Virus record (IMG/VR): IMGVR_UViG_3300044615_000294
Span: 1 to 64,000 of that record
From: a virus
Reading direction: 5' to 3' (one strand)
DNA length: 64,000 nt
This document shows positions 2,472-64,000 of this stretch, piece by piece (positions within the stretch are counted from its first letter, which is position 1; each line of letters starts with the position of its first letter). The notes beneath the pieces were generated by a model. That model saw only the letters and a list, made by a program, of their open reading frames with translations, was not told the origin of the DNA and ran no database searches. Made by a program: the position numbers and the translations under genes.

Positions 2472-5222
2472 TTATTTTTTATCTTTTGTTGATCCACCTT
2501 TGTCATATTTATTTTTATTGACTTGGGCAATTTGCAACTGTTTATCTGCTACTTCTCTTTGTGCATTTAGCTTCTCTCTTTCCAAATTCATCTTCTCTCT
2601 GTCAATAGTCATTCTATTGTCATCTTTAGTTTTTTGAAGTTCAGTCTGTGACTGATATTGTTGAGTAGCTCTAATGTCTTTCATAGCATCTGCATAGTCT
2701 GACATCTCATTTTTATTTACGTCAGCCATAGATCCATAACCAGCAGCTCTGATTTCTGCAACCAAGATATCTCTTTGTCTATCTTTTTCTTTCTCAGCAG
2801 CAACAGAATCAATTTTCATTTTCTCTATTTCCTGTTGAGATTTAATTTGTTCTTGTTGCATTTGCTGTTGCTGTTGCATTTCTTGTTCTTTCATCTCTTG
2901 TTGTTTTTGTTCAGAAGATTTAAGAACAGTATTAAGTTGTGCAATAGAGTCAGATTGAACAATTTTACCAAGATCATAGATAGAAGCCCCAGTAGTATTG
3001 TTCTGCATAGCCATTTGCTTAAGTTGTTCTAATACAGCTCTATGGTTTGCAGTAGTACTACAGAAGATATTAAGATCTCTCATTAATAGATCTGTACCAT
3101 TAATCTCAAAATTAACTTTCTCATCTGCTGTGGTTATATAAGTTAATCTTGTAGATGGTTTAGTTGAATGATAATATTGTGCTAGGTCAGTACGCATTTG
3201 GTGTACTCTAGGCATTAGATAATCACAGTGTTGGATAAAGAATACCTCTGTCTGTGCATAAGATGCTGCAGCTGCTTGTTCTACACCTGTAGCTGTCATC
3301 TGCGCTATCTGTTGACCCATTCTTTGTGGAGTAACACCAATTACTTCATATGCTTGTTGCTTAAAATGATTAGCTAACTGAATCCTAGACATTAATCTTT
3401 CTGTCTGAGATAGATCTAGTTTTTGGAAATGCTGGAAGTTTAATGCATTCTCTGTATTTGTAATAGATGTATCTAATGGTAACATCTGGAAGTTCTTCAT
3501 TGCAACATATGCCTTAGCATAGTTTCCTTTACCCCAGTCTTCACCAAGTGAATGTTTAGGTAAAGTATTCTGATCTAACATGATGATAGTACCAAGCTCA
3601 TCTACAAGGATATCAGCAATCTGATTGTTTACAATGTTGTATCCAATCTGATATGGCTTCATTAGATCAAGTAAAGCTGTAGATCTAGTATTTCTATCAG
3701 AGAATACAGAACCCTCTACAGGAAGCTTACATCCGTACAATGTGCTATCTCCTTTAAACTGGAAAGGAATTGGTCCAAGTTTGCTTTTATTTATTCCTAT
3801 GTACATTGGTGTAAATCCACCAGGATTATTCATACCCCAGAAACTAGGAATATTTGGTCCAATTTTAATTCCTCCCCAAACCTCATTAATCCAAATCCAG
3901 TCTATGTGTTCTCCATAGATTAGATTGTCTTTAGTTTTATTTTTGTTTAGTCTAGTATCATAGATTGGTTTAATAGTAGTTTCATAGTCTTCATCAACTA
4001 TATCCATCTTTACTTCACCATTATCATCTATAGAAATTAGATGCCCAACTTTTCTTTGTGATTTCCAATATATTGTAGTTACTCTTAATAAGTATGCAAT
4101 ACCTTGATCATAATAATCTTCTCCTTCAGAAAGTATTTGTGCAATAATATCTCCTCCACTATATACTGAGTTTGACATTGCAGTAGTATACTGTCTATAT
4201 GCTAATGAAGGCATGTTAACATTCCAGTCATGAGATTTAGTTCCATCATAGAATGTTCCATCATTCTGGTAACCACCAATTGTATAACCAGCAGATCTAA
4301 TTGGATATATAGCCTCTAGTGCTTTTAATTGCTCTTCATTAAGCAAGTAACCATATTTGTCAATAACATCTGATGGTGTCATCATATCTGTTTTACCAAC
4401 CCAGTTAGCTTGTGAGATATATCTTACATCAGGAGATTTGTGATAGAAAGTAACTACTGGATTCCAAAGTTCTACCTCATAGTCATCTTCCATCATTCTA
4501 AAATGCCAGAACTCTCTATCTGTAATAAGCATATCACGGAAAGCTCTTTCTTCTAGCTCATCCATTCTAAATCTTTCTACATCTACTTTGTGTTGGTGAG
4601 TAGCCCACTCTTCTATCATAGATCTGTAATCTTTCTTAAAGAACATTTCTATTTCAGGAAGAGACTTTAATTTTTCATCAGATGTTCCTTGTGTAAATTC
4701 TTCAGATGCCGGATCTAATCCTTGGTCCATTAATGCAGATGCTGTTTTTAATCTTGCATCTTCTAATAGAGTATCCTCTACCATCTTTCTCTTTTGCTCT
4801 AGCATCTCATTATATGAGAACTCATCTACAGCACGGTAAGTTAACTTAGTTGATCTTTTAGCAAATTCAGCTACTAAGACATTAATAACATTTGGAATAA
4901 TTGGATAGAACTTTAACTCTAATGCAGAAGCATCTTCCTTTGTAAGTAATTCTACTATATCTCTATACTCATTATTATCTTCTACAATATAATCTGATCT
5001 ATCTATGATACCTTTTGCAAGCTTATAGTTTTTCATTAGTCTTCTGGCATTTCTGCGGATTTGTTTTAATCCTTGCCATTCAACCCAGTCAAGATTCCAA
5101 GCAGCCCACTTTTCATCTTTTTCTTTTTTAGGTAAAAATTGTAAAGGTTGGGTAATAGTACCCATCCTATTGTTTTCAACTTTTGCTCCTTTCTTTAACT
5201 GTAATGCGTTATATACTTGCAT
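2472..5222 (-). CDS. Portal protein
   Basis: 916 aa directly after the terminase; YPIIPNVINVLVAEF segment and Q-rich coiled-coil C-terminus typical of crAss-like portals. Confidence 0.85.
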   Translation of the reverse strand: MQVYNALQLKKGAKVENNRMGTITQPLQFLPKKEKDEKWAAWNLDWVEWQGLKQIRRNARRLMKNYKLAKGIIDRSDYIVEDNNEYRDIVELLTKEDASALELKFYPIIPNVINVLVAEFAKRSTKLTYRAVDEFSYNEMLEQKRKMVEDTLLEDARLKTASALMDQGLDPASEEFTQGTSDEKLKSLPEIEMFFKKDYRSMIEEWATHQHKVDVERFRMDELEERAFRDMLITDREFWHFRMMEDDYEVELWNPVVTFYHKSPDVRYISQANWVGKTDMMTPSDVIDKYGYLLNEEQLKALEAIYPIRSAGYTIGGYQNDGTFYDGTKSHDWNVNMPSLAYRQYTTAMSNSVYSGGDIIAQILSEGEDYYDQGIAYLLRVTTIYWKSQRKVGHLISIDDNGEVKMDIVDEDYETTIKPIYDTRLNKNKTKDNLIYGEHIDWIWINEVWGGIKIGPNIPSFWGMNNPGGFTPMYIGINKSKLGPIPFQFKGDSTLYGCKLPVEGSVFSDRNTRSTALLDLMKPYQIGYNIVNNQIADILVDELGTIIMLDQNTLPKHSLGEDWGKGNYAKAYVAMKNFQMLPLDTSITNTENALNFQHFQKLDLSQTERLMSRIQLANHFKQQAYEVIGVTPQRMGQQIAQMTATGVEQAAAASYAQTEVFFIQHCDYLMPRVHQMRTDLAQYYHSTKPSTRLTYITTADEKVNFEINGTDLLMRDLNIFCSTTANHRAVLEQLKQMAMQNNTTGASIYDLGKIVQSDSIAQLNTVLKSSEQKQQEMKEQEMQQQQQMQQEQIKSQQEIEKMKIDSVAAEKEKDRQRDILVAEIRAAGYGSMADVNKNEMSDYADAMKDIRATQQYQSQTELQKTKDDNRMTIDREKMNLEREKLNAQREVADKQLQIAQVNKNKYDKGGSTKDKK

Positions 5223-52447: not shown

Positions 52448-55400
52448 TACTTTAAATTTTCAAACATTTGGTATTTCTTAATAGCCCAAATAGCACCTTC
52501 ATCAAAGTTTTCTTGACCTTCAATACCAAGATCTATTACATTTTTACCTTTAAGACCATACATTGAACCAAGGTGATTCCAAAGCTTGTATTGTCCTTGT
52601 CTTTGCCACTTATATGGTCCAACATCTTGGCTATATCTTGCTTCTCCCTCATTACCCGCTCCAATATTATAAAGATCTTGACCTATCTTAGTGTACAATA
52701 CAACTGTATTATCTAATGCTATTGTCGTTGTTTTAAAATATTTTGTTCCTTGCTCTGGAAGATAGACAGGTATAAAAGATTCATTTTCCATTTTAGTCAT
52801 TATCAAAAGATAAAGTAAATGATTCTCAAGTTGACCTTGTGTTGTAGTTGCTCTTGCTTTTAATTTTTTCCACTTATCTTCATCATCTGGATCATAACCA
52901 AAATACCATGAACCAATAATCATTGCTAATAAGAAGTATCCAACATTTTCAATAATTACTTTTTTGGCTGCAGCTTTTTCATCTTCAGTCATTATTGCGG
53001 TATCTTTACCTACTGATCTAATGAGTCTTAATGCATTTTGCATAGTATTCATGTAATAACCTTTATCTAAAGTATTAGTGTCCCAGTTATATACATACCC
53101 ACCTAGATTACCTTTATCAGTATCTATTTGGTATTTATCAAGAAACATTCCTGTAGCAAATCTTTTATAAAAAGTAAATGCGCGGTACCCTAAATATTTT
53201 TCAGCTTGTGGTGTATCAAATACATCCATTAAACCTGTTGTCTTTTTCTGTGCAGATTGTAATAAGAATTTCATATTTAAAAATCCTTCCATGTTACCCA
53301 CAGTGATTTTATCTCCAGGCTCAAGTTTTGATATATCAGTTATACCACTTCTTTTTTTAACTTGTTCAGCTGTTATATTATATCTTTTAGCAATGCTTTC
53401 AAAAGTATCTCCTCTCTTATACTCATGCTCTACTTTTTTATAGTCATACATTGGATCAATACCATCTTTTAATTTTAAAATTCCTCTATCATCTGTTTCC
53501 CATGCATCAGCATAAGCTATATCTTCAGAAGAACCAGCTTGTGGAATGTATTTGTTATACATCATGCCCCAGAACATCTCTAGAGCAGCCTCAAGTTCCA
53601 TTGTTCTTCTAAAGTCATAAGCATATGTTAAATCTGCTAAGTCTTTTAGTTTTGATCTTGATGATGATTTACCAAAGTTTTTACCAAACATTGCTGTAGG
53701 ATCCATCCTTTCTACTAACTGTATGTCAGCTGATTTAATTCCTTGCTCATATACATCTTTAAATACCCAGAACATTGCAGATTGTTTGGCTTTTGCATAC
53801 CCCTTTGCTAATGACATTGGTGTAACATTTTTACCACCTGCTGCATATATAGCATTTTGATAAAGCATCCCCCAACGGTTTTTAATAGCTGACTGTGGAT
53901 CAAATGCAATAAATGCTCTTGAAGATCTTCTAAATAATCCTTGAATAATTTTAGTTAACCATGCATTTTCTTCATCAAATGTTCCAGTAGTTTTACCATA
54001 AAAGATTTTTTTAACTTGATGTTTTACTGCACCTAATCTTCTATTATCATCTTTAGATAAGAACTTCCTTTTACGTGTTCTTTGAAATTCTTGTTGATCA
54101 ATATTTGTTAAATCTTTAATACCATTTTGAGAAAGGACACTTTCCAAAGCTTTAGCAATTGGTTCATTTTCCAATAATACTTTTTGTTCTTCTAAGGATA
54201 AAAGATAATCATACATCCCCCGTAATACATCTTTAGAAACACGTTTTTGATCTAAATTGTATAAGCCTCTAATTCTAACTTTATTAACTGGTCTTCCATC
54301 TAAGTCTGTTGGAACCAAATTAAAATTAACATCATGATTAAATCCAAACTCTGCATCATCTACATCTTTACCAAACCATGTTTTCCATAAACCTTTAAAT
54401 CCACCAACTCTATCTATCAAATTTTCTTTAGCTTCTCCAGACGCAACATATTCTAAATTACCTCTTTTTCTAAACCTTGGCATTTCTAAGTACAATCTAC
54501 TTGAAACAGGTTTATTTTTTTGAATTTGAATCATAGATTCAGTTATAGCATTTAATAAATCAAATTCTGGCCCACCAGCATTTTTCATTTCTTCATATTC
54601 TTCATTTTGATATTTTTTATCAAATGCTGAATTTGGATCACCAATATTATACTCTCTAGGTAAATAGTTACCTTTATTATCTACAATAGTACCTACATAA
54701 TTATCCCAACTTTCACCTCTTGGTATTGTTAAAAATTCACTTTTTATTCTACTCTTAGTATATTTACCAGCTGGTCTTCCTATAATTTTTCTTTCTGTCT
54801 TAGTTAAAGGGTCAATGATTTCTGTTACAACATAATGATCAGGATTGTTTGGAATCTTCATTGTCCAGGCTGCAATTCTAAAGTTTTTAATTACATTCCT
54901 ATTTAAGTCCACATCATATACTTCCTTTTGATAATGATTTCTACCATACCATTTTGCAAACTCTGGATTTTCTAAAGCTTTAACTAAATTTTCTCCATTT
55001 ATCCATTTATCTGCATTATCTGTAGTCATTTCAGGAAGTTCCATATCTCTTATAGCATAATTAAATGCTTCAAGATAATAGTCTGTTGGAATTTTACTTT
55101 CAAGTTCTCTTAATTCTGCAAATCTTGATTTAAGTGCTGCTAATTCTGCAGGAGTTAAACCCATCTCATTTTTAATAGAAAGGATTTCTGCATAATCTTT
55201 TCTTTCTTCTGGAGTTAATTGAGTTCCAGCAGCGGCTTTTGCAATATAAGAGTCATATCTAGATGTTTGATCTTTTGTTAATCCAGTTTTTCTATCAAAC
55301 TGTTCTTCCAATCTTACTATTTCATCTTCTATTTTCTTTAAAAGATTAATTTGTTCAGGAGAAAGGTTTAATCCATTAGGTTGCCCGTTAGCATCTGATG

Positions 55401-58400: not shown

Positions 58401-58674
58401 TGTTATAGTTATTTTTTGTAGAGACAGCTTTCATCAAACTAATCTTTTGACTGTAGCTTATCTCTTTAGGGAAACTTTTACCAATTTCTTCTTTAACTTT
58501 AGAAATTGGAACTAAACCTAATGCTTCTTTAACATTTTTATTTTTAATGAAATCATTATAGCTAGGTGTTTCACTATTAAAAAATTCCTGAATAAGATTA
58601 GAGACTTTTGTTTCTCCAAAATCTTTTACCATTTTTTGTACATCAGGATCACCAAAGTTTAAACAGAATGACAT
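52447..58674 (-). CDS. Giant virion (ejected cargo) protein with zincin motif and LysM domain
   Basis: 2075 aa; VLHEFAHP at about 57733-57747; LysM HEYKRGDTFESIAKRYNIT...LEPGDKITV at about 53300-53430. Confidence 0.75.
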   Translation of the reverse strand: MSFCLNFGDPDVQKMVKDFGETKVSNLIQEFFNSETPSYNDFIKNKNVKEALGLVPISKVKEEIGKSFPKEISYSQKISLMKAVSTKNNYNKANNISTVYMLYNLEQIGQADLNTWGLRKVKGKLDIEGKIERAQSRIVDATQSNKPVSDLENIIKTGAYIKPEFKEKTPEQELYEEEARKIQEEDAKRAGVDYTDDYLFGRNSEETLGVDPNITEAEFRRQAAIVTRMTAEEASADTYNAESERAIEIATTLADKLSDAMNVEWELVTPEAAEILLKNTATEYDGEPAFFFGNKVYFVEGNLSVDNVLHEFAHPLIKGIEQENPELFNNLYAELSMTPEGMDVIAYIERLYPKLQKGSKAFMREALVTSIERKGTAPSSAFKKFLDKLMFAIKKVIRKAFSPKVAAKINLNKLSQSTTLDQLANMLANEEFQIESFEIFNVNNPEFKKLESEVARRINELKGIPVERLQEEINRIYDNNMRQLNSLKQVPFKVKDLLVKSGGTKILNYIREELSKYQTVNVKAEDIDPENVIRAVEDIESETRLRALALTNSLNEIETFVESIEKILDDLTKVESQTNENISRVIYYKTSLQNQQVLLDKLKDLPLDKETLFYKTLNSIQNSVENANKKIAEIEFKFISDFFADETELMQDSIEKSLKERVGIILKAEGYSEEDVNNFIENVINTEDRETYTLKDLKLTDITPRRAKLVVKAVNEYMFKRLGKKQIEEYLRGERGDLSFYTAFITPYANMDDPIAGSFTRFVKTKIFEAQQAAQDQADEITYKLLPLLNAVGYQPYKTNQLGDMLLFLDKVGYVDNNGDFQEKEVWTFKNKFKNYRYDLAKLQNNFQEARAKNDKQAMKDAYQAIQDFEEKYMHRRYTKEFYDIQKIWNTGAVVTDPFTGQEITISPKIAFDSYVERQNALSKMNTLKNVNFLDLEDLYDFNDSEEQARLEYNRLFDIYNLQGEPKEGEELQRVLLRKKHRELSRNMYDYDIDSDRVQKDLDNFHNRLIAKGIDPEAEPKEGETKNEYQKQIDKFLRSNFKTAYTSKFYAERKRILEEIRKITAKVADKKSQIALDLAELYKTRFNLSTSTSDANGQPNGLNLSPEQINLLKKIEDEIVRLEEQFDRKTGLTKDQTSRYDSYIAKAAAGTQLTPEERKDYAEILSIKNEMGLTPAELAALKSRFAELRELESKIPTDYYLEAFNYAIRDMELPEMTTDNADKWINGENLVKALENPEFAKWYGRNHYQKEVYDVDLNRNVIKNFRIAAWTMKIPNNPDHYVVTEIIDPLTKTERKIIGRPAGKYTKSRIKSEFLTIPRGESWDNYVGTIVDNKGNYLPREYNIGDPNSAFDKKYQNEEYEEMKNAGGPEFDLLNAITESMIQIQKNKPVSSRLYLEMPRFRKRGNLEYVASGEAKENLIDRVGGFKGLWKTWFGKDVDDAEFGFNHDVNFNLVPTDLDGRPVNKVRIRGLYNLDQKRVSKDVLRGMYDYLLSLEEQKVLLENEPIAKALESVLSQNGIKDLTNIDQQEFQRTRKRKFLSKDDNRRLGAVKHQVKKIFYGKTTGTFDEENAWLTKIIQGLFRRSSRAFIAFDPQSAIKNRWGMLYQNAIYAAGGKNVTPMSLAKGYAKAKQSAMFWVFKDVYEQGIKSADIQLVERMDPTAMFGKNFGKSSSRSKLKDLADLTYAYDFRRTMELEAALEMFWGMMYNKYIPQAGSSEDIAYADAWETDDRGILKLKDGIDPMYDYKKVEHEYKRGDTFESIAKRYNITAEQVKKRSGITDISKLEPGDKITVGNMEGFLNMKFLLQSAQKKTTGLMDVFDTPQAEKYLGYRAFTFYKRFATGMFLDKYQIDTDKGNLGGYVYNWDTNTLDKGYYMNTMQNALRLIRSVGKDTAIMTEDEKAAAKKVIIENVGYFLLAMIIGSWYFGYDPDDEDKWKKLKARATTTQGQLENHLLYLLIMTKMENESFIPVYLPEQGTKYFKTTTIALDNTVVLYTKIGQDLYNIGAGNEGEARYSQDVGPYKWQRQGQYKLWNHLGSMYGLKGKNVIDLGIEGQENFDEGAIWAIKKYQMFENLK

Positions 58675-58679
58675 AATCT

Positions 58680-61600
58680 TTATCTTTTACATTTCATATA
58701 ATAATCTAGAGCATCCATTATATCTAGATCTGGATTTTTAACTTCTTCATTTGCAAACCAATCTTTAAACTCTTTTGAATTTAATACAATGGTTTTATTT
58801 TGATTTTCCAAAGTTAAATTATTTTCTTCTTCTTCTTGACTAAATAAATCTAATTGTTCTCCTGGTCCAGGTTTTTGAGTACCTCTAAGCTCTTCTCTAA
58901 CTTCCATAAGTAATTTTGGAAACTCTTTACCCCATTTAGTTTTATCTTGAGTATGTGTAAGAGTAGCATTACCTGTAGCAAGTAATTTAGCAAGGGCATC
59001 TGGATTTTGTTCAAAAGAAAGTGTAAGTATATTTTTCATTACTCCTGATGAATCTCTATCCCAAGTTGCAGTTGATAAATCTTTAATTTTAGCTCCTAAA
59101 CTTTTTGCTTGAGCTCCAGTTGCAGTTTTTAATTTTTCAAGTATCTCTAAATTTTCTTTACTTGCAGGAGCACCTAATAAAACAGCATTTGTAAAAAATA
59201 TTTTCATAGCTTGGAAAGCACCTTCAGGAGTTCTGAATGTTTGACCATTAAGCGTTACAGCTCTGTCAGCAAAATTACTTAACTCAGCATTTTCTCCTGT
59301 ACCAGCATAAATATTGATTTTAATATCAGATCCTGGTAAATTAGTACTAGGTTGAGTAGTAATTAGTTTATCAAAATTCTCATTAAATACTATATTAGAA
59401 GGTATTGGTCCTGCATTAATAAACATATCTGCCATTTCTTGACCTGTATAACCATTAAGATTAGTTCCAGAGTAATCAGATACTAAAAATTCTTTAGTTG
59501 GATTTTCTTTAGCATACTCATACAACTTTTTAACACCCTCTATAATTTCTTGAGGAGTTTTACTTTTCTTTTTTCCAGGACTAGTTACAGTAGTTATACC
59601 CCATGCTTTTCCTGAATCAGACAATCTATTATCCATTTTTTCACCTTGCTTAACACCAGCAATTCTGTATGCAACTAATGCTGCTCCTCCTGTACCTTTA
59701 GAAGGATTTCCATTAATACCAAGTGGATTAGAACCAAATACAAATATTTGATTAGGCTGTAAACTTGTTACTTTTCCTGAATAAGTTTTTCTTTCAGTAG
59801 GTTGAGTAGTAGGTGCAGTAGCTTTTCTCCAAGTACCGATAGGTTGACCATCAATTTTTATCTCAGAATAATTATATCCTTTAGCTTCAAGATTTTGATA
59901 CAATCTTTTTTCACCAGTATTATAACTACTTGAATCTATGTAAGCTTTATTATCTGTAAGAATAGTAGCTCCAGCTTCTATGGCTTTAATTGCTTCTCTG
60001 ATAGTTTTATCTTGTTCTCTTTTAACAACGGTTGCATCACCTCTTAGTCCAGGAACAGATACAAAGATTACATCTGTACCACTATATTTACCAGTATTTG
60101 CTAAAGTACCAGCTTGTTCTCTATAGATCTGTGTAGTACTACGTTTACCATCTTTACCAACTATACCTTCTCCAAAACCAATAAACTGTGTAGCTATGCT
60201 CGCTTTTGTTACAGCTTTAGCATCTTTAACTCCCGCTTGAGGAATAACTGTAAATCTGTCTTTCTTTTCAAATGTTGGAGTAGTAGATACAAATGCAGCT
60301 GATACAAAGTTTTTAAAGATTCTATTTCTAGGATTCATACTTATATTAAATACTCTATCCATGTATCTTTGTTTATCTTCAAAGTTTTGGTTGTTAAAGT
60401 CTACTGCTGCATTATTCATAATTGCAACATAGTCTTCAAATGGTAAGATTTCATTAAAACCAAATCTACTATACCCTACTCCATTCTGATATACTGCAAC
60501 AAGTGGTAGTGCACGGAACATGTCACTGATGTACTTATTTTGTATTGGATCAGCTACTTTAGATACATTAGGATCAGCTAGATCTTTAATGTTTTGATAG
60601 TATTGTTCTGCCACATTTCCTTTACTTAATAATCTAGAATTATTTAAAGTAAGAATTTTCTGACCATCTTTAACTTCTGGAATAGATAGTTGTGATAATA
60701 AACTATATTTATCTTTTAACTCAGGATGTTGATTTATAATATCAAAAATATCTTCTGCAAATGAGTATCCTGTATTTTGGAAGAACACATCTTTTGTAAA
60801 GTATTTAGCTAAAATATCTGAAGGAATGTTTAACAAATCTTTTTCAGATTGTACATACCCCACCATATAATTTTGGAACACAGAATTAACCATGTTATTT
60901 TTTATATCAGATATGAATGTTTCAGTATCACCAAATCTTTTTACTATTTGAAAACTATTAGTCTTTATAAGACTTATAATGATATCACTTATGTCTTTTG
61001 AATTTCTTAATGGAAACACTGGCTGTACTAAATCCTGAACAATTTGATTGTCAAAAAATGTAGATAAGATAGATTCTTTTCTTAAAGCTTTTACTACTTT
61101 ACCTTCTACTCTTGAGTCATTTTCAATTTCATCAAGAAGTACATTTCTATTAATTACTTGCTGTAAAGTTTTAGATATTGCAGTATCCGGATTAGATAAT
61201 CTCATTAACTCTTGGTATCCTGAGAACTGTTTTTCTAATTCTAATACATGAAGTAATGTAGCAATTTGATGATCTCTAAATTTAGGGTCATTTGGATTAT
61301 CAAGAATTTTATTTAAATCTTCAATATTAAATTGCCCATCTTCATTTAAGATGTTACCTTTTTCTATAAGAGCGTCTAATGCTTTTTGTTCTTCTCTAAC
61401 TAACTTTGGTGCTTCTTTTGAATCAACAATAAATTTTGATAACACTCTAGCTGCTGCAACTTCTTTATCAGGAATTTTTATTTCTAGACCACTTTGACTA
61501 ATTTTAGTTCTAGGTATACCGCTGTTGTCAGTAATAAGATCTGAGTAAGAACTTTTTAAAAGTCTTTGTTCTTTTGCATACTCCCTTACTAATGGTTGTG

Positions 61601-64000
61601 ACAAAAACTTAATTGCATATTCTCTTGTAACTCCTGACTTAAATAACATAGCCATTAACCCAATCATTTCTTCATTACCTTGGATAAAGAATATCCATGC
61701 ATTTTTCTCAACATCCACAGAACCATTCATTAATTGTGAATATAGTTCTGATATTAAATCTCCATCTACTGTAGTAATATCTGAAAGTGATATTCTACCA
61801 TCTTTAGTTTTATTATGAGGTAATAATATTCTTGATTCTCTTCCTTTTTGTTTTTTATAGGTGTATGTTTTAGGCATTGCTGCACCTAAAGTATTTAGTA
61901 CCGGGTGTAAAGCATTGTAGATAGCTACAATACCCAATACCCTCTTACCAATCATATTTGCTTCATGCTTGTGTAAGTTGTATAATGGCTCTAATACTCT
62001 AGTGGGGCTAATAGCTTTTTCACCTTTTGTGTTTAGTCTTCTATCTTCACCATGATAGTTTTTAAATCTATCATAGTCTGTTACCTTGTCTTCTAATTTA
62101 TCTGCCAATTCATCTTTCAAAAGATATGTAGCATTTGGTCTAACAAGAGATGCATAGTTCTCTGGTAAACTAAGTATGTTAGATAGGCTAGTAATTAGTT
62201 TATTCTCTAAAGCTGCCTTTTGAGTACTCAGTAATCTAGCAGTCATTTGCTTTCCTTCTTCTGTATCTTTATTTTGATCAATAAGATTTTGAAGTCTCTC
62301 ATTAGACATTGCTGATTCTATAAACTTTCCAGATTTATCCAATGATGGCATAAATGTAGTAAGTTTATCAACGTCAAAGTCAGCTCCTGACTTAGCAACT
62401 ATTTCTGATGGTGGTATAATAATTGGACCAGCAGCCTCATCTAAGAACTCATATACTTCCATATATTCCATAGAGTTAAGGCCTTGCACAGGAATCCTAA
62501 CAGCAATCATGGTAATTGCTTTTCTATTAGCTCCATCATTTGCATTTAACCATTCATCATCTTTAATAGCCTGGTTTAGCCTTTCTCTTGTACCAATTTT
62601 TTCCCCTTTGTAATCTAAGTTTAAAAGATTAACAAAGTCTCCCTGAAGAGCAATAGCAACTTTCATTGCTGAAGTTCTATCTTTATCATAGTTATAGAAA
62701 GGTAAGTTATTAGTTCCCATGAACTTTCTTACTTGTTCTACATCAGCTTTATCAAATTGAATTTGATTATCCCAGATACCATTAGTCATTGCACTAGATA
62801 CCTGTACTAATGCTTCACCTTTGATTTTTTGTCTTACTAATCTTTTTTCAATTAATGAAACAATAATTTTTTCAATCTCATCTGCTCTTAAATGGAAAGA
62901 TAAATCTGTTTTCAAAGAGTTATCTGGATTCATATTGATAAACTCAATATGGTGTTCTGGGATATTCTTTCTACCCAACTCTCTTTGTACAAGCTCTAAG
63001 AAGTTTTTAAAATTTCCAATGTATTTACCATCTTCAAACTTATAACCAATCTCATTAAGTAGTTCCATTTTTAAGAACTCACCATATGCATCTACTGCAT
63101 CTTCATAATCTTTAACTAAAACTTGATTTTTAACTGTAAGTTCACCATTTCTATATAAGTTAGATAGGATAAGTTTTCTTAACTGAGTAGCAAATACTGT
63201 TTTGTTTTTATAAGATACAGGAACTTTAGTAACATCTTTAAGATACTCAAGGTATACTGTGTTTGGAGTAAACTTAATATCTGTCTTTAATGATTTTTGT
63301 TCATCATCATTATAAATTTTATCAGCTACTGCTTTTCCTTTTTCATTAACCTCAGATGTAACACTACCAACTTTAGAACCAGTCTGGAAAGTAACATACT
63401 GAATGTTTTCCTTAATCATTTGCTTATGTAAAGATTCTAAATCAGAATTCTTTATCATTGATGGAATAAGAGGAGCTAAGGCAAACTTATGCATTGCCAT
63501 TACTGGTAGTGATGTATTAGCCAAGTGTCCAAAATTTTGCACTTTATATACCGGGAATGCTTCAATAATATCAGAATACTTAACAGGTTCTTTTCTTATT
63601 ACCTTTACATATAATTGTTCTTGTAAATCACTCCACTGGTTAGATGCAATTTTAAGATTTCTATAAGCATCAAATGTAATCCATCCTTGACCATCTCCTT
63701 CCTCCATTTTTCCATAAGGCTTAAGATCCTGAGCCACACGCATTTCTACTTCCTCAGATAGTTTATCAGCTGGAACTTTTCCTTTAAGTCTCTCTGTATA
63801 ATCTTTTCTTAATTCTCTTTCAATTATAGGAGAATAAACAGATTCTCTCACAATATCTTGAATAATGGCAGAATTAAATTTACCTGTGTAAGCAAGAGTT
63901 TCTAATCCTTCTGCTTGTGCATAAGATAATTTACCATTCAATCCAGTTAAATAATTTCTTATTGACTGATCTGTTCTAATCTTTAATCCACCAGAAGTTC
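58680..64000 (-). CDS. Virion RNA polymerase (crAss-type) with C-terminal accessory domains including NADAR; 5' end beyond the window
   Basis: RIPVQG and GADFDVDKL catalytic motif at 62367-62381. The frame stays open upstream of the track's TTG start (TSGGLKIRTDQSIRNYLTG) to 64000. Confidence 0.88.
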   Translation of the reverse strand, partial: TSGGLKIRTDQSIRNYLTGLNGKLSYAQAEGLETLAYTGKFNSAIIQDIVRESVYSPIIERELRKDYTERLKGKVPADKLSEEVEMRVAQDLKPYGKMEEGDGQGWITFDAYRNLKIASNQWSDLQEQLYVKVIRKEPVKYSDIIEAFPVYKVQNFGHLANTSLPVMAMHKFALAPLIPSMIKNSDLESLHKQMIKENIQYVTFQTGSKVGSVTSEVNEKGKAVADKIYNDDEQKSLKTDIKFTPNTVYLEYLKDVTKVPVSYKNKTVFATQLRKLILSNLYRNGELTVKNQVLVKDYEDAVDAYGEFLKMELLNEIGYKFEDGKYIGNFKNFLELVQRELGRKNIPEHHIEFINMNPDNSLKTDLSFHLRADEIEKIIVSLIEKRLVRQKIKGEALVQVSSAMTNGIWDNQIQFDKADVEQVRKFMGTNNLPFYNYDKDRTSAMKVAIALQGDFVNLLNLDYKGEKIGTRERLNQAIKDDEWLNANDGANRKAITMIAVRIPVQGLNSMEYMEVYEFLDEAAGPIIIPPSEIVAKSGADFDVDKLTTFMPSLDKSGKFIESAMSNERLQNLIDQNKDTEEGKQMTARLLSTQKAALENKLITSLSNILSLPENYASLVRPNATYLLKDELADKLEDKVTDYDRFKNYHGEDRRLNTKGEKAISPTRVLEPLYNLHKHEANMIGKRVLGIVAIYNALHPVLNTLGAAMPKTYTYKKQKGRESRILLPHNKTKDGRISLSDITTVDGDLISELYSQLMNGSVDVEKNAWIFFIQGNEEMIGLMAMLFKSGVTREYAIKFLSQPLVREYAKEQRLLKSSYSDLITDNSGIPRTKISQSGLEIKIPDKEVAAARVLSKFIVDSKEAPKLVREEQKALDALIEKGNILNEDGQFNIEDLNKILDNPNDPKFRDHQIATLLHVLELEKQFSGYQELMRLSNPDTAISKTLQQVINRNVLLDEIENDSRVEGKVVKALRKESILSTFFDNQIVQDLVQPVFPLRNSKDISDIIISLIKTNSFQIVKRFGDTETFISDIKNNMVNSVFQNYMVGYVQSEKDLLNIPSDILAKYFTKDVFFQNTGYSFAEDIFDIINQHPELKDKYSLLSQLSIPEVKDGQKILTLNNSRLLSKGNVAEQYYQNIKDLADPNVSKVADPIQNKYISDMFRALPLVAVYQNGVGYSRFGFNEILPFEDYVAIMNNAAVDFNNQNFEDKQRYMDRVFNISMNPRNRIFKNFVSAAFVSTTPTFEKKDRFTVIPQAGVKDAKAVTKASIATQFIGFGEGIVGKDGKRSTTQIYREQAGTLANTGKYSGTDVIFVSVPGLRGDATVVKREQDKTIREAIKAIEAGATILTDNKAYIDSSSYNTGEKRLYQNLEAKGYNYSEIKIDGQPIGTWRKATAPTTQPTERKTYSGKVTSLQPNQIFVFGSNPLGINGNPSKGTGGAALVAYRIAGVKQGEKMDNRLSDSGKAWGITTVTSPGKKKSKTPQEIIEGVKKLYEYAKENPTKEFLVSDYSGTNLNGYTGQEMADMFINAGPIPSNIVFNENFDKLITTQPSTNLPGSDIKINIYAGTGENAELSNFADRAVTLNGQTFRTPEGAFQAMKIFFTNAVLLGAPASKENLEILEKLKTATGAQAKSLGAKIKDLSTATWDRDSSGVMKNILTLSFEQNPDALAKLLATGNATLTHTQDKTKWGKEFPKLLMEVREELRGTQKPGPGEQLDLFSQEEEENNLTLENQNKTIVLNSKEFKDWFANEEVKNPDLDIMDALDYYMKCKR

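Follow-up and report, generated by a model that had tools for sequence, protein, structure and literature searches.

The subject of this analysis is a giant minus-strand gene at the end of the window, i.e. of the first 64 kb (64,000 nt) of the 91,341-bp IMG/VR virus record IMGVR_UViG_3300044615_000294 (CheckV completeness 77%); the same phage DNA was found again in about 18 lake-water metagenome runs. The gene encodes a 3438-aa protein that is, judged by alignment, an orthologue of the crAss-type virion RNA polymerase (RNAP) gp66 of Cellulophaga phage phi14:2 with its two-barrel core; between the polymerase body and a 61-aa tail it carries an exchangeable payload of three domains, named below modules i, ii and iii in the order of the chain, of which module ii has the fold of a macrodomain by model and module iii belongs to the NADAR family. 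It appears probable, with considerable room for doubt, that this RNAP is a polyvalent protein whose packaged payload enters the cell with the genome and removes base-linked ADP-ribose (ADPr) before any phage gene is expressed. The original prediction, made from the letters of the window, had placed three ADPr-erasing anti-defence domains at the C-terminus of the polymerase; the motifs it quoted were all located in a single open frame of the minus strand, and its module coordinates were accurate within about 50–100 nt, the tail and the TTQP linkers that join the modules being absent from it. By their family matches or homologue counts, none of the three modules can be put down to chance; the observation stands, and its interpretation is borne out in part.

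The full open reading frame was located at record positions 58680–68996 and is cut by the window edge; the tblastn matches of the 3438-aa protein were giant RNAP genes of crAss-like phages. BLASTP aligned residues 1626–2508 with residues 859–1683 of phi14:2 gp66 (E 2e-24) and placed SGADFDVDKL onto gp66 TGSDFDIDKM, i.e. onto the catalytic motif 1361-DFDID-1365, of which each of the three Asp residues is essential (10.1101/2020.03.07.982082); the polymerase assignment of the carrier was borne out by this orthology. Carried in the virion, gp66 serves to transcribe the early genes (10.1101/2020.03.07.982082; PMC7886860); RNAPs of its type accept single-stranded or denatured DNA as template, but not duplex DNA (10.1101/2020.03.07.982082), and the products of phi14:2 g065–g068 are annotated as virion proteins by tandem mass spectrometry (MS/MS); by orthology to gp66, the lake-phage RNAP would likewise be present in the virion and injected. 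The N-terminal part of the protein holds a zincin-like HEAWH (HExxH) motif (record ~66.8 kb, residues ~715–720) within a stretch conserved across many giant homologues; the Pfam scan of the RNAP protein covered the C-terminal 1772 aa encoded in the window, and the HEAWH region lies upstream of these.

Module iii was matched by Pfam PF08719 above the gathering score (E 2.2e-12, 47.9 bits, the cut-off being 35.1), and a six-frame search of the record recovered the same family; its PDB matches were YbiA 2b3w (E 2.9e-7) and, in addition, NADAR 8bau. When the module was aligned with E. coli YbiA and T4 gp30.3 (AdfN), the SNF motif proved invariant, as did the Glu and the Lys within TPEGAFQAMK; the latter two residues are AdfN E36 and K43 (E-x6-K motif; E88/K95 in the E. 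coli C7 NADAR), they are essential in NADAR (PMC11257639, PMC11543638), and their mutation abolishes the anti-DarTG1 activity of AdfN (PMC11257639). The last strand reads LTH in module iii, LKH in AdfN and VEH in YbiA, so that Thr stands at the position of the YbiA Glu and the His is kept; a His in this strand, and not Glu/Asp, is the mark of the phage gp30.3 class of NADAR (PMC11125620). Pfam Phage_30_3 matched the module at E 1e-4, under the cut-off of that family. Module iii is, by its Pfam match and its conserved residues, a bona fide NADAR of the phage His class, in agreement with the NADAR/YbiA domain proposed originally. Guanine-linked ADPr (G-ADPr) on DNA is hydrolysed by every NADAR class tested (PMC11125620).

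Module ii was matched by NCBIfam NF049995, "A1S_2505 family phage non-structural protein, N-terminal", over the whole profile (positions 1–109 of 109; E 1.6e-16, 60.5 bits against 45) and by phrog_2072 (E 2e-18). The structure model obtained from an alignment of 34 sequences had a pLDDT (predicted local distance difference test) of 89, and TARG1 and DarG, both DNA-ADPr hydrolases, were its nearest structural neighbours; the module is accordingly modelled as a three-layer macrodomain, recognisable by fold and not by sequence. No Pfam family at all was found for it at E ≤ 10, PDB searches by phmmer and by profile returned noise and no sequence link to solved macrodomains, and PADLOC gave no DarG match. 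The word after the central strand is TK in 134 of 206 family copies and TV in module ii and 69 others; in most TV-type copies the Gly-rich loop is lengthened by an insert of six residues, and a conserved basic residue is retained within this insert. Sequence comparison suggests that the Lys of the family TK word is probably the 'PTK' Lys of DarG, the catalytic Lys of the DarG/TARG1 class, which we take to be DarG K80 and TARG1 K84. The A1S_2505-type domain is also common in bacteria and was seen in many Bacteroidales metagenome-assembled genomes and on plasmids or contigs of Nostoc and Scytonema (L018, L020–L024). Phage mimics of the DarG2-like macro antitoxin are known as a means of counter-defence (PMC13309987).

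Module i had been read as possibly SLOG/Rossmann-like; fold comparison gave no match, and the SLOG reading (LOG, DprA, YpsA-type Rossmannoid) was supported by no sequence or fold test. Homologue search yielded 490 representatives at E ≤ 1e-3 (103 at ≤ 1e-30), standing at any position within giant proteins or occurring as free proteins of 140–240 aa; about a dozen positions are invariant, mostly polar or aromatic (N, D, S, Y, N, E). Since 131 of the 150 proteins retrieved by module i alone carry neither NADAR nor module ii, it is not specifically an ADPr module; the proposed payload of three ADPr erasers is therefore retained for the NADAR and, by fold, for module ii, and given up for module i, a largely independent domain. 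Its Pfam-recognisable partners were NADAR, AlkB-like oxygenase, DUF7831, SF1 helicases, cpYpsA and ART-PolyVal. Many of the free-standing module-i proteins begin with MAC and finish with Cys.

The payload occupies a slot of variable content. Search with the C-terminal region gave 1761 giant proteins (1890–6017 aa) sharing parts of it, and 40 arrangements of five scored elements were counted among the 188 giant homologues scanned, the exact module series described here being found only in the lake protein and one identical copy. Twelve relatives have bodies 89–98% identical over the aligned stretch (all 2900 aa were spanned in six of them) and differ in payload, which consists of module i directly followed by the tail, of module i and 300 aa without recognised sequence, of module i, NADAR and an AlkB-like domain, or of module i, NADAR and ~650 aa without recognised sequence, among others. 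Pfam gave no match on the payload segments of the near-identical RNAPs P0014 (residues 3067–3366) and P0009 (~3240–3900), so that these count as further uncharacterised cassette domains. The tail was 62–100% identical in all 12 relatives irrespective of the payload; the word (T/S)TQP was confined to the payload region, and the copies checked lay at module borders. The partner domains found in the payloads of relatives act on nucleic acids or NAD (AlkB-like, RecD/PIF1 helicases, ART-PolyVal, cpYpsA).

Module borders also showed up in the contigs of lake samples. A contig of run X13 (depth 59.7) joins position 59347 to 59798, skipping 450 nt with 14 letters common to both sides; it is a macro-less allele, a natural deletion variant with its joint at the linker repeat, and macro-bearing contigs were present beside it at lower depth. 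In run X14 the dominant contigs end at 58866, 59348 and 59812, i.e. at module borders. Contig joints with a short side were not counted as clean deletions; these are several inside NADAR in X13 and, in X14, the joint of 58866 to 59348 (side 29). The linker-encoding DNA repeats coincide with the points of in-frame module gain and loss.

Coordinates of the features are collected in Table 1.

Table 1: Features of the giant RNAP gene (window positions)
Feature	Position	Strand	Basis
3' part of the giant gene (C-terminal 1772 codons and stop)	58680..64000	minus	ORF (open reading frame) listing and translation
DFDVD, catalytic DxDxD motif of RNAP (by alignment)	62367..62381	minus	alignment to gp66 DFDID
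Module i, conserved α/β domain, function not assigned, no demonstrable SLOG	59820..60272	minus	homologue search
14-bp repeat, upstream copy, TAGGTTGAGTAGTA (plus-strand letters), TTQP linker of modules i/ii	59798..59811	minus	exact repeat
Module ii, A1S_2505_Nterm-family domain, macrodomain fold (modelled), TV subtype	59355..59789	minus	NCBIfam, PHROG, model
14-bp repeat, downstream copy, TTQP linker of module ii/NADAR	59348..59361	minus	exact repeat
Module iii, NADAR domain of phage gp30.3/AdfN type	58890..59324 (Pfam match 58920-59291)	minus	Pfam, PDB, alignment
NADAR catalytic Glu	59223-59225	minus	alignment with AdfN, YbiA
NADAR catalytic Lys	59202-59204	minus	alignment with AdfN, YbiA
Conserved 61-aa C-terminal tail ending ...CKR (Cys 58689-58691)	58683..58865	minus	kept across differing payloads

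The proposed course of events is as follows. The chain would be composed of the N-terminal HExxH region, the two-barrel RNAP body, the payload slot and the Cys-terminated tail, the slot being filled by module i, the TARG1/DarG-like macro-fold module and the phage-type NADAR; the complete chain is most likely packaged into the virion and would reach the cell alongside the genome, whereupon ADPr would be stripped off nucleic-acid bases by the NADAR, perhaps also by the macro module, before phage gene expression. DarT1- or YarT-type adducts on guanine would be the target of the NADAR, and DarT2-type adducts on thymine that of the macro module, provided that it is active. The single-stranded template required by gp66 (10.1101/2020.03.07.982082) is also the form of DNA on which DarT2 is documented to act (PMC11543638), which favours this reading. 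Bacteroidota are presumed to be the host phylum on the strength of the crAss-like phage literature. DarT (PF14487) was found in 34 of 401 sampled Bacteroidota genomes, the sample being centred on a Lacinutrix genome that was reached via a module-ii homologue; at the six best DarT loci (L088–L093) the adjacent protein of ~355 aa has an N-terminal Pfam Macro domain, i.e. these are DarTG2-type pairs. In one DarT-adjacent protein the C-terminal part, in addition, resembles SocA/Panacea (E 1.6e-4, under the Pfam cut-off).

A number of points speak against delivery of active ADPr erasers by the polymerase. On the side of module ii, no Pfam Macro (PF01661) match was found in the record at E ≤ 0.1, the controls being positive in nine of 14 genomes; hhalign against six Bacteroidota DarG macrodomains gave a local and weak match (probability 9.9%) of the N-terminal 37 columns, which take in the Asn and the Gly-rich loop as well as the first strand. 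Moreover, because Val occupies the TK position of the family, module ii may bind ADPr rather than hydrolyse it. The macrodomain-like character claimed for this module is thus borne out by the modelled fold and not by Pfam Macro. On the side of module iii, T4 NADAR and YbiA hydrolyse G-ADPr in vitro, yet did not rescue DarT1 toxicity in one study (PMC11125620), and the six loci from Bacteroidota, the presumed host phylum, have DarTG2-type partners only, DarT1-NADAR pairs not having been searched for. As regards the carrier, its HExxH region could process the chain, and the few RNAP copies per virion may mean insufficient enzyme. Finally, Iyer et al. regard phage Macro, NADAR and SLOG domains as mainly aimed at small ADPr-derived signals (PMC9503650).

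The last point leads to a rather unlikely alternative, in which the payload would perform no DNA repair and would degrade small diffusible compounds, for instance toxic ADPr phosphates or immune signals of the cyclic ADPR type. Iyer et al. (2022) argue for it from co-occurrence and from the prokaryotic dominance of TIR/SIR2-type NADase immunity, and mention the possibility that these genes are packaged in the head so as to act early (PMC9503650); however, base-linked ADPr is the substrate of the NADARs characterised so far, AdfN counteracts DarTG1, the model of module ii is nearest to two DNA-ADPr hydrolases, relatives carry nucleic-acid enzymes as partner modules (AlkB-like, SF1 helicases), and an enzyme tethered to a polymerase would be badly placed for clearing a diffusible signal. 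It is also unlikely that the modules are not delivered at all, the C-terminus being cleaved off before packaging (e.g. by the HExxH domain) or the payload acting only late in the infected cell. Such processing is suggested by the HEAWH motif in the N-terminal part and by P1 DdrB, which is processed prior to packaging (PMC5512222), and proteolytic activation was left open by the authors of gp66 (10.1101/2020.03.07.982082); against this, N4 virion RNAP is packaged unprocessed together with its MPTase (PMC5512222), the payload lies between the body and a tail whose conservation, whatever payload precedes it, argues for a need to stay connected, and a counter-defence acting late would come too late against DarT.

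It is distinctly unlikely that one or more of the modules are non-catalytic, serving as binding, spacer or folding units for packaging and ejection or as readers of ADPr or nucleic acid, with module ii as a binder and module i as a nucleic-acid-binding or structural unit; the Val of module ii would suit such a role, whereas the dozen invariant polar residues of module i are typical of an active site, the catalytic residues of the NADAR are intact and the loop insert of the TV type keeps its conserved basic residue. Very improbable is the use of the erasers as a self-antidote to an injected ADP-ribosyltransferase of the phage itself: ART-PolyVal (PF18760) does occur together with NADAR in some giant relatives, but it was found neither in the 77%-complete record nor in the RNAP protein. 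A doubtful extension of the preferred reading, i.e. of base-linked ADPr removal by an injected payload, is that the erasers act in cis, as transcription-coupled direct reversal of base damage on the injected genome. The NADAR (G-ADPr), the macro module (thymine-linked ADPr) and the AlkB-like domains of sister strains (alkylated bases) would then clear lesions just ahead of the polymerase, and module i would be a further lesion-reversal or nucleic-acid-handling enzyme. Because the RNAP needs a single-stranded template and single-stranded DNA is the documented substrate form of DarT2 (PMC11543638), a tethered eraser would, speculatively, sit where damage hurts most.

Cysteine is scarce in the giant proteins (0.08% over the 188 homologues) and is found within the last six residues in 168 and within the first eight in 92 of these 188; in the lake phage it is the third-last and the fifth residue of RNAP (Cys5 at record 68982–68984) and the fourth residue of the downstream 2075-aa protein (58663–58665). 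Terminal Cys suggests that the ejected proteins are linked head to tail or bear a terminal signal. The gene order around RNAP is that of the crAss "transcription block", with a gene for 2231 aa upstream and the gene for 2075 aa downstream across 5 nt; a converging plus-strand block terminates in DNA polymerase and MazG. PHROGs gave zero matches on the minus-strand genes neighbouring RNAP, and the similarity of P0002 to phi14:2 gp65 was marginal (E 0.06). The downstream 2075-aa protein contains a LysM peptidoglycan-binding domain near its C-terminus (residues 1753–1792; 53299–53418, minus strand; Pfam E 1e-7), which is consistent with a protein that, during ejection, crosses the cell wall or is anchored there.

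crAss-like phages, dominant in gut viromes, are here seen to recur in lakes as well. If the injected polymerase does carry exchangeable counter-defence enzymes, the fast evolution of these giant genes would be explained, and, since the payload alleles are polymorphic inside single lake samples, they would give a direct read-out of the host defences that matter in nature; the slot would moreover furnish a catalogue of uncharacterised effector domains, including module i and the macro modules of the A1S_2505 type. The TTQP linker word is a natural in-frame joint for domain swapping. New for this locus are a natural polymorphism for presence or absence at the linker repeat, the division of the macro-like family into TK and TV copies, the recasting of module i as a largely independent domain and the frequency of DarTG2 in Bacteroidota. 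The literature searched contained no paper connecting crAss-like/Crassvirales RNAP with NADAR, DUF1768, macro or polyvalent proteins; Yutin 2021 speaks of 'large multidomain proteins' only.

Comparison with known systems may begin with two single enzymes. phi14:2 gp66 shares the orthologous catalytic core with the aligned DxDxD motif and the flanking giant genes of the same orientation; it has 2180 aa, whereas the lake protein has ~770 extra residues at the N-terminus and ~530 payload residues at the C-terminus, for which the alignment shows no counterpart in gp66. T4 gp30.3/AdfN, whose neutralisation of DarTG1 is a known counter-defence (PMC11257639 / PMC11825919; PMC11125620), belongs, like module iii, to the NADAR fold family and has the same catalytic residues, Glu and Lys, together with a His of phage type in the last strand; AdfN, however, is a free-standing early product, whereas module iii, ~29% identical to it and of predicted activity and target only, is fused into a predicted virion protein. 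The macrodomains of DarG and TARG1 (PDB 5m3e, 4j5q) differ from module ii, which has no significant Pfam Macro match, in its six-residue insert of the Gly-rich loop and in the Val at the probable position of the catalytic Lys. In phage cr126_1 (Steigviridae, MT774391) a NADAR 52% identical to module iii is part of a 2402-aa 'DUF1768 domain-containing protein' in the crAss transcription block; in contrast to the lake protein it stands at the N-terminus, on a separate giant protein adjoining an RNAP subunit gene and not on the catalytic subunit. The public annotation of cr126_1 shows that such NADAR fusions have already been flagged; no publication discussing this one was found in the literature searched.

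In general layout the lake protein resembles the polyvalent proteins (Iyer, Burroughs, Anand, de Souza, Aravind 2017, PMC5512222), giant virion-associated proteins in which unrelated enzymatic domains are strung together and whose architecture varies strongly among relatives, as do the 40 arrangements counted here. They include the virion RNAP of N4 with its zincin-like MPTase, for which action at entry was likewise predicted (PMC5512222), and to which the HExxH region and RNAP of the lake protein correspond; the N4 enzyme is T7-like, whereas that of the lake phage is a two-barrel crAss-type RNAP. A payload of NADAR and macro-fold domain is not listed there for RNAP carriers, and NADAR is not mentioned (PMC5512222); furthermore, the slot of the lake phage is delimited by TTQP linkers and a conserved tail. 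The concept as such, with polyvalent effectors delivered by the virion and with NADAR and macro antitoxin mimics in phages, has been published before; the RNAP described here extends it and makes no new category.

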